Shown in pieces: positions 2,765-6,564 of a stretch of 64,000 nucleotides of DNA. The notes beneath the pieces were generated by a model. That model did no database searches. It was not told the origin of the DNA and was given only the letters and a program-made list of their open reading frames with translations. The stretch's first letter is position 1; the number at the start of each line of letters is the position of its first letter. The stretch spans positions 69,029 to 133,028 of the forward strand of contig JAONAZ010000002.1 in assembly GCA_028376655.1 (NCBI GenBank). Direction: 5' to 3'. The DNA is from Acidimicrobiia bacterium. GTDB lineage: Bacteria; Actinomycetota; Acidimicrobiia; Actinomarinales; Actinomarinaceae. A program made the position numbers and the translations under genes.

Positions 2765-3844
2765 ATGAATTTTAAAATAGCAGTTATTATTGGAGGTCCT
2801 TCTCCTGAACACGATATATCTATTTTGACTGGTCTTCAAAGTGCCAGAGTCTTATCAGTTAAAAACGATGTATCAATTATTTACTGGACGAAGGACAATA
2901 ACTGGTATCTACTTGATTCTGATCTAGAATCTACTGATTTCATAGAAAATTCAATAAACTTTTCTAAAGAATTACATTTATCTTTAGGAAAAGATAATTG
3001 TTTTCTCTACAAAAGAAAAAAAATAGAGTTTGATATTTTTGTTAATTCTTGTCACGGTGGTCCAGGCGAAGATGGAAGCCTTCAAGGACTATTAGAAATA
3101 ATGGATGTTAAATATACTGGTCCAAACCTACAAACTGCCCAACTTTGTATGGATAAATATGCTTTTTATTCACTTATGAAAACAAATAATCTACCTGTTT
3201 TAGATAAATTTAGAATTCAAAAAAATGTTACACCAAACTTTAAGGGTCCTTATGTATTGAAACCACAATTTGGGGGTTCATCTATTGGAGTCGAGCTCGT
3301 AGAAGATTACGAAACAGCTCTTAAAATATCAGAATCATCAGATCTTTATGAAAGGGGTGCACTATTAGAGCAGTATCTTGAAAATGCAGATGATTTATTA
3401 ATTGGTGTAAGAAATTATCCAGAGTTTAATTTTTCAGAAATAGAAAAACCAATCAGAAATTCAAATCTTTTTTCATACGAGGAAAAATATCTTAACAATG
3501 GAGGGCTAGAAGGTTCTAAAAGAGAACTTCCAGCAGTATTATCCGAAAAGATTTGTAACAATATATATTCCTATATAGAAAAAATTAATAAGATCATACC
3601 TTCTCGTGGAATAGTTCGTTATGATTTCTTAAAAATTGAAGACGAAGTTTATATAAATGAAATAAATACTATTCCTGGTAGCCATGCACTTTATCTTTGG
3701 AAGAATTTGAATATTTCTAAGTATGATTTATTACATAATATGGTCCTAGAGGGATTAAACGAAAAGTCTAATCAGTGGAGTATTCAAGGTTCTGATGGTA
3801 TGGCTTTAAGAAGTGCTAAAGATATCAATTCTAAGCTCGGGTAA
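2765..3844 (+). CDS. ddl: D-alanine--D-alanine ligase
   Basis: ATP-grasp fold. Motif CHGGPGEDGSLQGLLE, then LKPQFGGSSIGV and C-terminal YINEINTIPG. 359 aa. Confidence 0.9.
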   Translation: MNFKIAVIIGGPSPEHDISILTGLQSARVLSVKNDVSIIYWTKDNNWYLLDSDLESTDFIENSINFSKELHLSLGKDNCFLYKRKKIEFDIFVNSCHGGPGEDGSLQGLLEIMDVKYTGPNLQTAQLCMDKYAFYSLMKTNNLPVLDKFRIQKNVTPNFKGPYVLKPQFGGSSIGVELVEDYETALKISESSDLYERGALLEQYLENADDLLIGVRNYPEFNFSEIEKPIRNSNLFSYEEKYLNNGGLEGSKRELPAVLSEKICNNIYSYIEKINKIIPSRGIVRYDFLKIEDEVYINEINTIPGSHALYLWKNLNISKYDLLHNMVLEGLNEKSNQWSIQGSDGMALRSAKDINSKLG

Positions 3845-3845
3845 A

Positions 3846-4484
3846 ATGACGGGAATATATTGGGATTGTGACGGCACTCTTATGGATACCGAAAAGGCTT
3901 ATGCGTATGCATGGAAAGATGTTCTAAAAAAAAGAAATCTTAATTTACCCATTGAAAAGTTTGATGATTATGTAGGTATAGATGACAAATTAGTCCACAA
4001 AAAATATTCTGAACAAGTTGACCTTCCCTCATTTAGTGAAACTATGGATGAAATAGCAGCACTAATTATTGAAAACTTTTCAGATCATACAATTTTTAAT
4101 GATGCCTTAGTATGTTTGGAATATTTACAAGATTTAAACTGGAAACAGGCTTGTGTTTCCGCATCACCACAACAAGCATTAGAAGATAAACTTAAAAAAG
4201 CTGATATTTCAGATTATTTTGATTTTGTAGTTGGAGGTGACAAAGTGCGTCCTAGAAATAAACCATTTCCAGATATTTATAATTTAGCAATTAAAGAATT
4301 GAAAACTACAAATAATATTATCGTAGAAGACAGTCCTCCAGGAATTCAAGCTGGTAAAGCATCAAACAATTTTGTTGTTGCTATCGATAGGGGAGTTTTT
4401 ACTGGCAAAGATCTCTCAAATGCAGATCTTATAGTTGATGAACTTACTCCTAAAATCTTTATTGATATAAACAAAAGCCTTTAA
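3846..4484 (+). CDS. HAD-superfamily hydrolase (beta-phosphoglucomutase/phosphatase subfamily IA)
   Basis: Motif I is WDCDGTLMDTE; motif IV region is VEDSPPGIQAG. I prefer the ATG at 3846 (MTGIYWDCDG), 1 nt after the ddl stop, over the ORF-track start at 3813. Confidence 0.8.
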   Translation: MTGIYWDCDGTLMDTEKAYAYAWKDVLKKRNLNLPIEKFDDYVGIDDKLVHKKYSEQVDLPSFSETMDEIAALIIENFSDHTIFNDALVCLEYLQDLNWKQACVSASPQQALEDKLKKADISDYFDFVVGGDKVRPRNKPFPDIYNLAIKELKTTNNIIVEDSPPGIQAGKASNNFVVAIDRGVFTGKDLSNADLIVDELTPKIFIDINKSL

Positions 4485-4537: not shown

Positions 4538-4960
4538 CTAAGTTAGAGTAAGTATCATAATTGGGATTTTCCTGTCTGTCCTCTTCTGATAACTTTCATA
4601 TCCACCATTATTTAAATAATCCATTTTTATCCACCACTCATTACGTTCTTCGTTAAAAATTTCTCTTGAAGTAACTTGATACTTATCAGTTCCAATTGAT
4701 ATTGTAGATATGTGACTTTTTTTTAAATTATAATACCATCCAGGATTTCTCTCACTTCCGCCTCTAGACGCAACCAAACAAATTTCATTACCTTCTTTAA
4801 GGTAAACCAGAACGTTCTTTCTTACTAATTGTGTTTTGGCACCTATTGTCTCAAGTATTAAACATGGTCTACCGTTTAAATTTTTACCAATTCTTCCTTT
4901 TGAATAAATGTATGTATAGTTATGAAAAAACAGAAATAGAAATATAAGTTTTCTTTTCAT
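4538..4960 (-). CDS. deazaflavin (F420)-dependent nitroreductase/Ddn-family protein (PNPOx-like split barrel)
   Basis: LILETIGAKTQLVRKNVLVY...ASRGGSERNPGWYYNLK matches the Ddn-family core (GxxxxPxWYxNL). The ATG at 4960-4958 overlaps the upstream TGA (4959-4957) as ATGA, so I prefer it to the track start at 4987. Confidence 0.7.
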   Translation of the reverse strand: MKRKLIFLFLFFHNYTYIYSKGRIGKNLNGRPCLILETIGAKTQLVRKNVLVYLKEGNEICLVASRGGSERNPGWYYNLKKSHISTISIGTDKYQVTSREIFNEERNEWWIKMDYLNNGGYESYQKRTDRKIPIMILTLT

Positions 4961-6150
4961 ACTGTCAAAGAAATTTTCTTTTTCCATGAGGTATAGCTTT
5001 TGGGATAAAAATCTATTGGTTCAGCAAGCCTGCTAGTAGGAAACTCAACTTCAGGATGATTACTTTTGGTTATATTTTGATACTTTGGCACACAAGCATG
5101 TGTTACTGAATATTTATAGTTTTTTAAGATAATTTTTGGGTCATCGACAAATATTGATAGTTCTTTCTTAGCTGAAAGTTCCCTTAGTGTATCCAGTAAA
5201 AAGATAATCCTTTTTGAAGAAAGTTTTATTTTTTTTAAGAGTATTTCATCAAATATAAAGATTACAGGAAGATTTGGATTAGCTTTCATTGCTGCATCAT
5301 CGTCACCTAATGATTCTCCTGTTAGCCAAACTATTTCTGGTTTGGTTCCAGAATCTATTATTTTTGTTGGGCCGAATTTTTCAATTATATCAAAATTCAT
5401 TAATTGATTAACTGGTTCGAATTTAGATTCATTAGGCCATGTTTGTATCGGACATGTATATTGAAGTTTACAATCTCGACAAAGATTAGGCGCTCTATTC
5501 TTAACTTGAGACTGTGCAAAACCATATAATTTACCAGTTTGTCCACCCATTACCCATTGCCAACCCAGTCTATTTGCAAATCTTGATCCATCGACTAAAT
5601 GTTTAAACATATAATCTTCATAATCAGTCCAATTCTCACCTGCTCTGAAACTATGATGCGATGAATACCACATTCTTGTCTGGTTTACCATATAGCCCGT
5701 ATCAGTTAATTCTTTTTGTATTGTTTGTATACAATTCATTTCAGTTGTATCAATTTCTTTGTTGTTATTCTTCATAGAATAATTAAGCATTTTTTTCATC
5801 TTTTTACCCATGATTGCATACATATGCCTAGAAAATTCTTGCCAAAGTAGTTCATCTCTAAATTTTGTACGATCTTCATGTGGAAAATCAACAACCGCAT
5901 CCCACACTTCATTTAGCCCAAGTAGTCCATGTCTTATGTACGGAGATAGATAAGATGAGCCTCTCTTAGTTTCGGGATATACGTTGTTCCTTTTCTTTGA
6001 GTACCCTTTAATGTTAATATTTCTTAACTTCTCATCGGCTTGAGATTGACCACCTTTAAAAATCGATTCTGTATATTCATCACAAATAAGATGTGAAAAA
6101 TGTTTGTCGATAATTAATTTGTTAGATTCATTGATGATAATTTCAGACAT
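4957..6150 (-). CDS. Fe-S type bacterial cryptochrome/(6-4) photolyase-like protein with apparently permuted domain order
   Basis: FAD-domain motifs occur in N-terminal position: SYLSPYIRHGLLG, ELLWQEFSRH, TGYMVNQTRMWY, RLGWQWVMG. The four-Cys pattern MNC...CRDCKLQYTC matches the FeS-BCP cluster ligands. C-terminal residues 271-397 resemble the photolyase N-terminal alpha/beta domain. Confidence 0.7.
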   Translation of the reverse strand: MSEIIINESNKLIIDKHFSHLICDEYTESIFKGGQSQADEKLRNINIKGYSKKRNNVYPETKRGSSYLSPYIRHGLLGLNEVWDAVVDFPHEDRTKFRDELLWQEFSRHMYAIMGKKMKKMLNYSMKNNNKEIDTTEMNCIQTIQKELTDTGYMVNQTRMWYSSHHSFRAGENWTDYEDYMFKHLVDGSRFANRLGWQWVMGGQTGKLYGFAQSQVKNRAPNLCRDCKLQYTCPIQTWPNESKFEPVNQLMNFDIIEKFGPTKIIDSGTKPEIVWLTGESLGDDDAAMKANPNLPVIFIFDEILLKKIKLSSKRIIFLLDTLRELSAKKELSIFVDDPKIILKNYKYSVTHACVPKYQNITKSNHPEVEFPTSRLAEPIDFYPKSYTSWKKKISLTV

Positions 6151-6159
6151 TAAAGAATA

Positions 6160-6375
6160 TTAGTATCCACCTTGTCCAATTTTCACATTAGAAATAGTTT
6201 GAACATTATCTACATCATTTATTTCAAAATTTATTCTTTGACCCTGTCTTAAGGTTCTAAAAATTGACCCTTTAAGTGAACCGGGTTGTAAGTATACTTC
6301 AGTTTTATCTGTGTCAAGAACCACGATACCATTACCAGAGTTAGGATCATATGATTTAACAACACCCTGAGCCAT
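6160..6375 (-). CDS. degenerate cold-shock-domain-like OB-fold protein
   Basis: 71 aa. The overall spacing fits CspA (GVVKSY..SGNGIVV...EVYLQP...LRQGQRINFEI), but the RNP1/RNP2 aromatic residues are replaced. Abuts rpmB. Confidence 0.45.
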   Translation of the reverse strand: MAQGVVKSYDPNSGNGIVVLDTDKTEVYLQPGSLKGSIFRTLRQGQRINFEINDVDNVQTISNVKIGQGGY

Positions 6376-6564
6376 TTAAACTTTAGTTACTTTTCCAGCT
6401 TTCAAGCAAGATGTACAAACCTTTACTTTTTTTGTATTTGTGCTGTCAGCTACTTTAACTTTTTGGATATTAGCAGACCATTTTTTACTTGATCTCTTGT
6501 GAGAAAAAGATACTTGTTTTCCGAACCAAGGTCCTTTTCCACATACTTCACATTTTTTTGCCAT
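6376..6564 (-). CDS. rpmB: 50S ribosomal protein L28 (Zn-ribbon C+ form)
   Basis: MAKKCEVCGKGPWFGKQVSFSHKRSSKKW...CTSC. Typical L28 with two CxxC pairs. Confidence 0.95.
   Translation of the reverse strand: MAKKCEVCGKGPWFGKQVSFSHKRSSKKWSANIQKVKVADSTNTKKVKVCTSCLKAGKVTKV

Follow-up and report, generated by a model that had tools for sequence, protein, structure and literature searches.

A photolyase gene of probable NewPHL/SPL class with reversed domain order in a marine Actinomarinales genome

Gene and domain organization

A stretch of 64,000 nucleotides (hereafter the window) from contig JAONAZ010000002.1 of an Actinomarinales genome was analysed, and a gene for a 397-aa photolyase was found on its minus strand. 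To judge from the sequence, the product is very likely a member of the NewPHL/SPL class, a cyclobutane pyrimidine dimer (CPD)-type enzyme of the iron-sulfur (Fe-S) actinobacterial subgroup "Ac" and a permutant at the level of whole domains. The domain that binds flavin adenine dinucleotide (FAD) comes first, and the C-terminal domain, called the Z-domain in this class, is a genuine homologue of the alpha/beta domain at the N-terminus of canonical photolyases. New here is quantitative evidence for the Z-domain as a permuted antenna-type alpha/beta domain.

The features of the gene are listed below. Invariance refers throughout to alignment A1, which holds 70 homologous sequences, and RfSPL is the characterised class member of Rhodococcus fascians.

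4957..6150, minus strand: complete gene of the putative NewPHL/SPL-class photolyase, 397 aa plus stop codon at 4957-4959 (open reading frame (ORF) list, 2383 homologues, AlphaFold2 model)
5431..6150, minus strand: predicted all-helical FAD-binding/catalytic domain, residues 1-240, with homology matches at about 29-203 (Pfam, NCBIfam, PDB sequence matches, Foldseek)
5554..5853, minus strand: predicted CPD-type substrate and FAD-contact residues with the Trp dyad, E100, W103, N156, R159, M160, W174, D187, A192, N193, G196, W197 and W199 (A1, 1TEZ alignment, PMC8476157)
5731..5733, minus strand: codon of Cys140, first predicted Fe-S ligand, invariant in the 70 sequences, equal to RfSPL Cys155
5452..5481, minus strand: Cys224-x2-Cys227-x5-Cys233 and then Pro234, the other three predicted Fe-S ligands, invariant in the 70 sequences, with the spacing of RfSPL Cys239/242/248
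5341..5430, minus strand: inter-domain linker, residues 241-270, one short strand and one short helix in the model, GP at 260-261 invariant (AlphaFold2, A1)
5035..5340, minus strand: Z-domain, residues 271-372, five-stranded beta-alpha-beta in the model (AlphaFold2, Foldseek, PF00875, hhalign)
4960..5034, minus strand: C-terminal tail, residues 373-397, with conserved P378, S385 and W389 and a modelled helix at 386-392 (A1, AlphaFold2)

The ORF starts with ATG and runs uninterrupted from 6150 to 4957, in a window of about 31% G+C. An initial annotation, made from the letters alone, had described it as an apparently permuted (6-4) photolyase or cryptochrome in one unbroken frame, and all the motifs quoted there were found in place. 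In the FAD half these are GGQSQADEKL (33-42), SYLSPYIRHGLLG (66-78), ELLWQEFSRH (100-109), MNC (138-140), TGYMVNQTRMWY (151-162) and RLGWQWVMG (194-202), followed by CRDCKLQYTCP (224-234, that is C224-x2-C227-x5-C233-P234); in the C-terminal part they are PEIVWLTGESLGDDDAAMKA (271-290), PVIFIFDE (295-302) and SSKRIIFLLDTLRELS (311-326). Residues 271-397 correspond to nucleotides 5340-4960, as that annotation had it. The cysteines of the protein lie at positions 23, 140, 224, 227, 233 and 353. A pseudogene or an assembly rearrangement was rejected on account of the recurrence of the intact ORF in identical context in 24 independent Actinomarinales genomes and single-amplified genomes.

N-terminal catalytic domain

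Pfam FAD_binding_7 matched residues 98-202 (E=2.2e-7), and the NCBIfam model photolyase_8HDF matched residues 32-200. The NCBIfam models of class I photolyases of the 8-hydroxy-5-deazaflavin (8-HDF) type, E. coli-type photolyases and Cry-DASH matched residues ~27-202 with their profile positions ~200-397. The scores were far under the family cut-offs (TIGR03556, 53 bits against 884.6; NF007955, 38.5 against 506); a canonical class I/III CPD photolyase would give a full-length match above the curated cut-off, and none was found, the coverage being ~200-390 of the profiles. The best PDB sequence matches were the class I photolyases 1TEZ and 1OWL (E~7e-11), and by sequence the FAD domain is closest to class I CPD photolyases. 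Photolyase FAD-domain homology begins at residue ~29-34, aligned to canonical position ~200-226, with no alpha/beta domain ahead of it.

The full-length AlphaFold2 model built on A1 had a mean predicted local distance difference test score (pLDDT) of 94.2 and a predicted TM-score (pTM) of 0.92, with helices in residues 10-225. By Foldseek, the first 230-270 residues aligned to the catalytic domains of all photolyase classes (E down to 1.6e-6). The TM values were slightly higher for the bacterial cryptochromes and photolyases that carry an Fe-S cluster (FeS-BCPs; 4DJA, TMq 0.45 over 253 columns; 7YKN, 0.46) than for class I enzymes.

As read from the residues, the active site is of the CPD type. 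The predicted substrate contacts are E100, W103, N156, M160 and W199, and the predicted FAD contacts R159, D187, A192, N193 and G196. These residues are invariant or at least 90% conserved in A1, and align with their counterparts in the Synechococcus elongatus class I enzyme (SeCPDI, 1TEZ alignment). In the E. coli enzyme (EcCPDI) the equivalents are E274, W277, N341, M345 and W384 for the substrate and R344, D372, A377, N378 and G381 for FAD (PMC8476157). The electron-transfer dyad W197/W174 aligns with SeCPDI W390/W367. No Trp was found in the query segment aligned, in the PDB sequence alignment, to the distal Trp of the canonical triad, as reported for SPLs.

Nine representatives of 50%-identity clusters (P0127, P0128, P0133, P0135, P0138, P0140, P0145, P0151 and P0154) retain all four cysteines together with the motifs of the Z-domain but have lost most of the CPD-pocket residues equivalent to E100, W103, N156, M160 and W199. 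These nine may be non-repair, sensor-like paralogues within the Fe-S NewPHL/SPL subgroup.

Four-cysteine motif

The four-cysteine Fe-S pattern that the initial annotation had pointed out stood up well: C140, C224, C227 and C233 are invariant, along with many residues of both protein halves, and their spacing is the same as in Fe-S-containing RfSPL. By analogy with the latter, these four residues are predicted to bind an Fe-S cluster.

C-terminal Z-domain

The class is characterised by a well-ordered Z-domain of ~125-150 aa at the C-terminus. Residues 271-397 are conserved in A1, and were modelled with pLDDT 91-98 in the full-length model and 87.4 when modelled alone. In both AlphaFold2 models, residues 273-370 show the order beta1, alpha, beta2, alpha-alpha, beta3, alpha, beta4, alpha, beta5, and the C-terminal domain as modelled is a Rossmann-like alpha/beta domain. 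A conserved Trp and a "GFF" motif were reported for the NewPHL Z-domain by Emmerich et al. 2020 (PMC7736829). Conserved residues here include W275, W389, the invariant R314-x-x-F317 and F298/F300, with no literal GFF in this subgroup.

In the Foldseek search of the isolated Z-domain against PDB, the top match was the class II CPD photolyase of Methanosarcina mazei (5zcw_B; E=2.5e-3, probability 1.0, TMq 0.52, 142 columns). After the photolyases came universal stress proteins (USP) and phosphopantetheine adenylyltransferases (PPAT), which share the HUP fold class with the photolyase antenna domain.

The sequence evidence for homology came from a diverse set of 48 Z-domains, taken from 50%-identity cluster representatives, and a set of 111 canonical N-terminal domains. 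The consensus of the 48 Z-domains matched PF00875 at E=2e-6 (28.3 bits, cut-off 26.6). It also matched Pfam Usp (E=0.018), PF00875 being better by four orders of magnitude, and PF00875 was the best Pfam match in 8 of 10 Z-domain sequences (up to 29.7 bits). The natural member P0239 carries FAD_binding_7 at 100-221 and then DNA_photolyase at 307-433, the latter with 28.2 bits, above the gathering score, and colinear over profile positions 19-157 of 164. When the 48 Z-domains were aligned to the 111 N-domains with hhalign, the local alignment reached a probability of 96.6% (P=4.8e-10), spanning beta1 to beta5 in 116 colinear columns, and the global alignment 97.3% (P=5.4e-11) over 126 columns; controls with reversed and column-shuffled templates gave P=0.23-0.96. 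The query is linked to these diverse sequences through individual HMMER alignments that take in the catalytic domain and continue into the Z-domain (for P0239, query 23-351).

On this evidence, the C-terminal domain and the alpha/beta domain at the N-terminus of canonical photolyases are genuine homologues. With both domains homologous to those of photolyases, in reversed order and in one conserved ORF, the protein is a domain-level circular permutant. The order that the initial annotation had read, FAD domain first and alpha/beta domain second, is thus upheld by FAD_binding_7 for the first domain and by PF00875 and hhalign for the second. The Pfam mapping suggested there as a check agrees, with FAD_binding_7 in the N-terminal half and PF00875 at residues 286-328, weak on this protein alone (E=0.26) and above the cut-off in P0239.

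The 590-aa homologue P0258, which has an N-terminal extension of 148 aa in addition to the Z-domain, was considered as an alpha/beta-FAD-alpha/beta duplication intermediate and rejected, the extension having no Pfam match.

Class assignment and comparison with known photolyases

The NewPHL subfamily, with its "inverted topology", was defined by Emmerich et al. 2020 and repairs CPDs in single-stranded DNA only (PMC7736829). Xu et al. 2021 arrived at this class independently, named its proteins short photolyase-like (SPL) and found four conserved cysteines in the cyanobacterial (C) and actinobacterial (Ac) subgroups (PMC8476157). The reversed layout is real but known, having been published in 2020 and 2021, and the novelty implied by the initial annotation falls away; the gene very likely adds a further member to this class. 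HMMER continuity spans both Cys-containing and Cys-free family representatives.

The characterised protein most like ours is RfSPL (406 aa), for which both FAD and an Fe-S cluster were shown. Acting on UV-irradiated oligo(dT)16, it repairs CPDs but no 6-4 photoproducts, whose 325-nm absorption it left unchanged (PMC8476157). Both proteins come from the same phylum, are of similar length (406 and 397 aa) and have an N-terminal FAD domain with a C-terminal extension of ~150 aa. RfSPL Cys155/239/242/248 correspond to 140/224/227/233 here with identical spacing, and RfSPL N171, Q172, R174, M175, W189, D202, A207, N208, G211, W212, W214 and Q230 are each found here at a position lower by 15, the offset being 12 at E100/W103. 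Unlike RfSPL, the window protein comes from a streamlined marine Actinomarinales genome of 31% GC, where it sits in a lineage-specific rpmB-csp-NewPHL-DDN unit. It is ~41-45% identical to the retrieved actinobacterial homologues from outside Actinomarinales.

The alphaproteobacterial (subgroup A) proteins DsNewPHL of Dinoroseobacter shibae and MmNewPHL of Methylobacterium mesophilicum likewise have the catalytic domain followed by a Z-domain of ~150 aa. DsNewPHL N151-W169-W192-W194 equals N156-W174-W197-W199 here (N-18-W-23-W-x-W), and the CPD-type site and the Trp dyad are shared. Both enzymes were shown to act on CPDs in single-stranded DNA only (PMC7736829). They differ in having neither the four cysteines nor an Fe-S cluster, and Cys-free family representatives match the window protein at E~1e-16 to 1e-20, that is, distantly.

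With the class I CPD photolyases (S. elongatus 1TEZ/1OWL, E. coli 1DNP), the protein shares the substrate and FAD-contact residues and a homologous alpha/beta domain. Compared with them, it has reversed domain order, no inter-domain linker of ~70 aa with the phosphate-binding loop, no distal Trp, and four additional Fe-S cysteines. The FeS-BCPs (Agrobacterium fabrum PhrB 4DJA, Vibrio cholerae 7YKN, Cereibacter sphaeroides CryB) resemble it in having four comparably arranged cysteines where the catalytic domain ends and in the good structural match of that domain (TMq 0.45-0.46), but have the canonical domain order, the PF04244 signature, a 6,7-dimethyl-8-ribityllumazine (DMRL) antenna and (6-4) specificity. 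The spacing to the last cysteine also differs, C-x2-C-x12-C in AfPhrB (C350/C438/C441/C454) against C-x2-C-x5-C here. In the PDB sequence and Foldseek searches, which covered entries up to April 2026, there was no solved structure of the NewPHL/SPL class, and the entries matched the catalytic domain only.

Two fusions were observed in the family: P0217 (690 aa) joins a NewPHL/SPL protein to a C-terminal domain of the uracil-DNA-glycosylase superfamily (PF03167, E=9e-17), and P0193 (493 aa) joins one to DUF2256 (E=8e-10).

Alternative explanations

Several points weigh against assigning the gene to a permuted, Fe-S-bearing CPD-type member of NewPHL/SPL. Class membership is argued from architecture, motifs and residue spacing and from the continuity of HMMER matches through the family, the characterised members being compared by their published residue numbers. 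The Fe-S evidence for RfSPL is sub-stoichiometric (PMC8476157). As for the Z-domain, besides the weak PF00875 match of this protein alone, Pfam scanning found PF00875 in 4 of 70 full-length homologues (best E=0.032), and hhalign gave P=2e-4 for the narrow actinobacterial subgroup, the significance stemming from the family-wide profile. A Z-domain hidden Markov model (HMM) searched against PDB sequences recovered photolyase/cryptochrome N-domains in the correct register at E=0.5-0.9, behind spurious antibody matches, a suggestive result but not a significant one when taken alone. With hhalign, the narrow actinobacterial Z-domain alignment scored P=0.45 when the template was one E. coli N-domain, a lone sequence being too weak for this purpose.

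The label given by the initial annotation, a circularly permuted (6-4) photolyase or cryptochrome of the FeS-BCP/PhrB/CryB type, found no support, and we regard it as extremely improbable. It draws on the four-cysteine pattern, like that of AfPhrB, and on the slightly higher number of Foldseek columns and TM for FeS-BCP structures (0.45 over 253 columns for 4dja, 0.46 for 7ykn). Against it, PF04244 (DPRP) found no match in the 397-aa protein even at E<=10, and no FeS-BCP chain appeared among the PDB sequence matches at E<=10, where class I enzymes reached E~1e-10. N156-x-x-R159-M160 together with E100/W103/W199 corresponds to EcCPDI N341/R344/M345/E274/W277/W384, and RfSPL, which has the same four cysteines, repairs CPDs and leaves the 325-nm absorption of the 6-4 photoproduct unchanged. 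That the Z-domain is an independently recruited Rossmann-like domain of the HUP class, and the protein an ancestral, "minimal" photolyase capped by an unrelated domain and no permutant, seems to us very improbable as well. The domain resisted modelling by Emmerich et al., who described its predicted secondary-structure order as unlike the Rossmann fold (PMC7736829), SPLs lack the alpha/beta domain according to Xu et al. (PMC8476157), and USP and PPAT folds stand in the Foldseek list, with the consensus matching Usp at E=0.018. These points are outweighed by the preference for PF00875, best in 8 of 10 Z-domains and four orders of magnitude ahead of Usp for the consensus, by the colinear match of P0239 (19-157 of 164) above the curated cut-off, by the hhalign result (P=4.8e-10 over 116 colinear columns, controls 0.23-0.96) and by the photolyases at the top of the Foldseek list. 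The Fig. 5 legend of Emmerich et al. itself speaks of a "striking similarity ... to the antenna-binding domain" (PMC7736829).

The protein might also sense light or redox state, as a bacterial regulator resembling a cryptochrome, with the photolyase scaffold retained and the Fe-S cluster and C-terminal domain used for signalling and not for repair. A canonical photolyase is already present elsewhere in Actinomarinales genomes, a cryptochrome-like role was raised for C-terminal extensions by Xu et al. (PMC8476157), and the related clusters that keep the four cysteines and the Z-domain have lost catalytic residues, so the scaffold would be usable beyond repair. We nevertheless think a sensor quite unlikely: all residues for CPD binding and catalysis are kept here and in the 70 aligned relatives, CPD repair was found for 3 of 3 characterised family members, and the fusion of P0217 to a uracil-DNA-glycosylase domain points to DNA repair.

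Proposed mechanism

For a CPD-type NewPHL/SPL enzyme, we propose the following scheme, in which the FAD, Fe-S, substrate and domain-packing steps are inferred by homology. FAD would be held by the N-terminal helical domain, with an R159-D187 salt bridge and N193 beside N5, and would be photoreduced via the two-Trp chain W197 and W174. Light-excited FADH- would then give an electron to a CPD flipped into the pocket of E100, W103, N156, M160 and W199, and the dimer would be split. The preferred substrate is probably single-stranded DNA, as in the characterised members. A [4Fe-4S] or [3Fe-4S] cluster would be held by C140, C224, C227 and C233 at the end of the catalytic domain. The permuted alpha/beta domain (271-372) would pack on the catalytic domain and seal the FAD pocket; in DsNewPHL, covariation and hydrogen-deuterium exchange indicate that the Z-domain packs against the catalytic domain and closes this pocket (PMC7736829). 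For a canonical packing of the two domains, these data and the high pTM of our model (0.92) are indirect support.

Ancestry and the antenna question

Emmerich et al. described the Z-domain as having a "yet unknown fold" whose order was "not matching" the Rossmann fold, and in their discussion they leave room for an "early domain swapping event" (PMC7736829), while Xu et al. argue for ancestry from the claimed lack of an alpha/beta domain in SPLs (PMC8476157). In the literature searched, we found no paper in which the Z-domain is recognised as an alpha/beta domain in permuted position. The homology of the Z-domain to the antenna-type alpha/beta domain weakens the "minimal ancestor" reading of NewPHL/SPL, and it makes an antenna-binding role worth testing.

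FO, the precursor of F420, is the 8-HDF antenna of many photolyases. To our knowledge, every characterised NewPHL/SPL protein was produced in E. coli, which makes no FO. We might speculate that the NewPHL/SPL proteins are permutants of a two-domain Fe-S photolyase and not minimal ancestors, that in the F420/FO-producing Actinomarinales the alpha/beta domain still binds a deazaflavin (8-HDF/FO), missed through expression in E. coli, and that the DDN reductase and the cold-shock protein encoded beside the photolyase are its functional partners; taken as a whole, this proposal is rather unlikely.

Conservation and distribution

A search of ~5.8 billion proteins returned 2383 homologues of the 397-aa protein at E<=1e-3, with full-length matches from 99% down to ~41% identity. 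Relatives are encoded in at least 593 species genomes in a scan of species-representative genomes. Together with the invariant residues, these counts place the ORF and its motifs far beyond chance.

The nearest named homologue belongs to Candidatus Actinomarina sp., the window itself also being from Candidatus Actinomarina, and a 73%-identical Candidatus Actinomarina homologue carries the GenBank label "hypothetical protein". Among the best 80 of the at least 593 genomes, the best 25 loci were all from Actinomarinales/OCS155 and nearly all others from other Actinomycetota. For the Fe-S-bearing actinobacterial subgroup (Ac), Xu et al. 2021 counted seven proteins (PMC8476157), and the subgroup is much larger than that. 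In the abundant marine Candidatus Actinomarinales, whose genomes are streamlined, the NewPHL gene belongs to the conserved core, which argues for an enzyme that pays its way under surface-ocean UV.

A genome scan with the Mycobacterium homologue, made for the R. fascians SPL locus, had no Rhodococcus among the 80 loci listed. Five loci from environmental metagenome-assembled genomes (MAGs) titled "Bifidobacterium breve isolate ..." (L038, L088, L096, L150 and L153) encode NewPHL proteins 59-79% identical to the homologue of a Mycobacterium sp. MAG, and the organism labels of these five records look wrong.

Genomic neighbourhood

The photolyase gene lies in a compact unit with three neighbours:

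4538..4987, minus strand: DDN-family F420H2-dependent quinone reductase (PF04075, E=5e-34), starting 31 nt inside the photolyase 3' end (Pfam)
6160-6375, minus strand: cold-shock-domain-like protein, 71 aa (CSD, E=5.8e-6, 26.5 bits, just under the cut-off of 27; Pfam)
6376-6564, minus strand: rpmB, ribosomal protein L28 (Ribosomal_L28, E=2e-17; Pfam)

The cold-shock-like gene abuts rpmB and ends 9 nt upstream of the photolyase start codon. The DDN-family gene is probably co-transcribed with the photolyase gene. recG is divergent upstream, and a HAD hydrolase gene and ddl are convergent downstream of the photolyase unit. The promoter and terminator scan was no better than chance: it gave a single plausible -35/-10 pair, which lies upstream of rpmB, and on the minus strand no internal terminator. 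No tRNA genes or Rfam features were found in the window.

The rpmB/csp-like/NewPHL/DDN arrangement is kept in 24 Actinomarinales loci with a photolyase only 55-73% identical. It is not conserved in other Actinomycetota, and no neighbour cluster outside Actinomarinales occurred in more than 9 of 56 loci, most clusters there being spurious high-GC ORFs.

No second photolyase gene was found within the 64-kb window. López-Pérez et al. 2020 reported that Actinomarinales make F420 and carry a canonical photolyase adjoining the rhodopsin gene. A canonical photolyase elsewhere in the genome, and none other in the window, fits the reported co-occurrence of NewPHL/SPL with canonical photolyases.

The cold-shock-like gene places a putative binder of single-stranded nucleic acid beside a photolyase of a class specific for single-stranded DNA, which may or may not be meaningful. 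On the plus strand, in the region 2765-4484, the HAD-hydrolase ORF with its predicted start (GTG at 3813) overlaps the end of ddl (2765-3844) by 32 nt, which again shows how densely the genes of this streamlined genome are packed.

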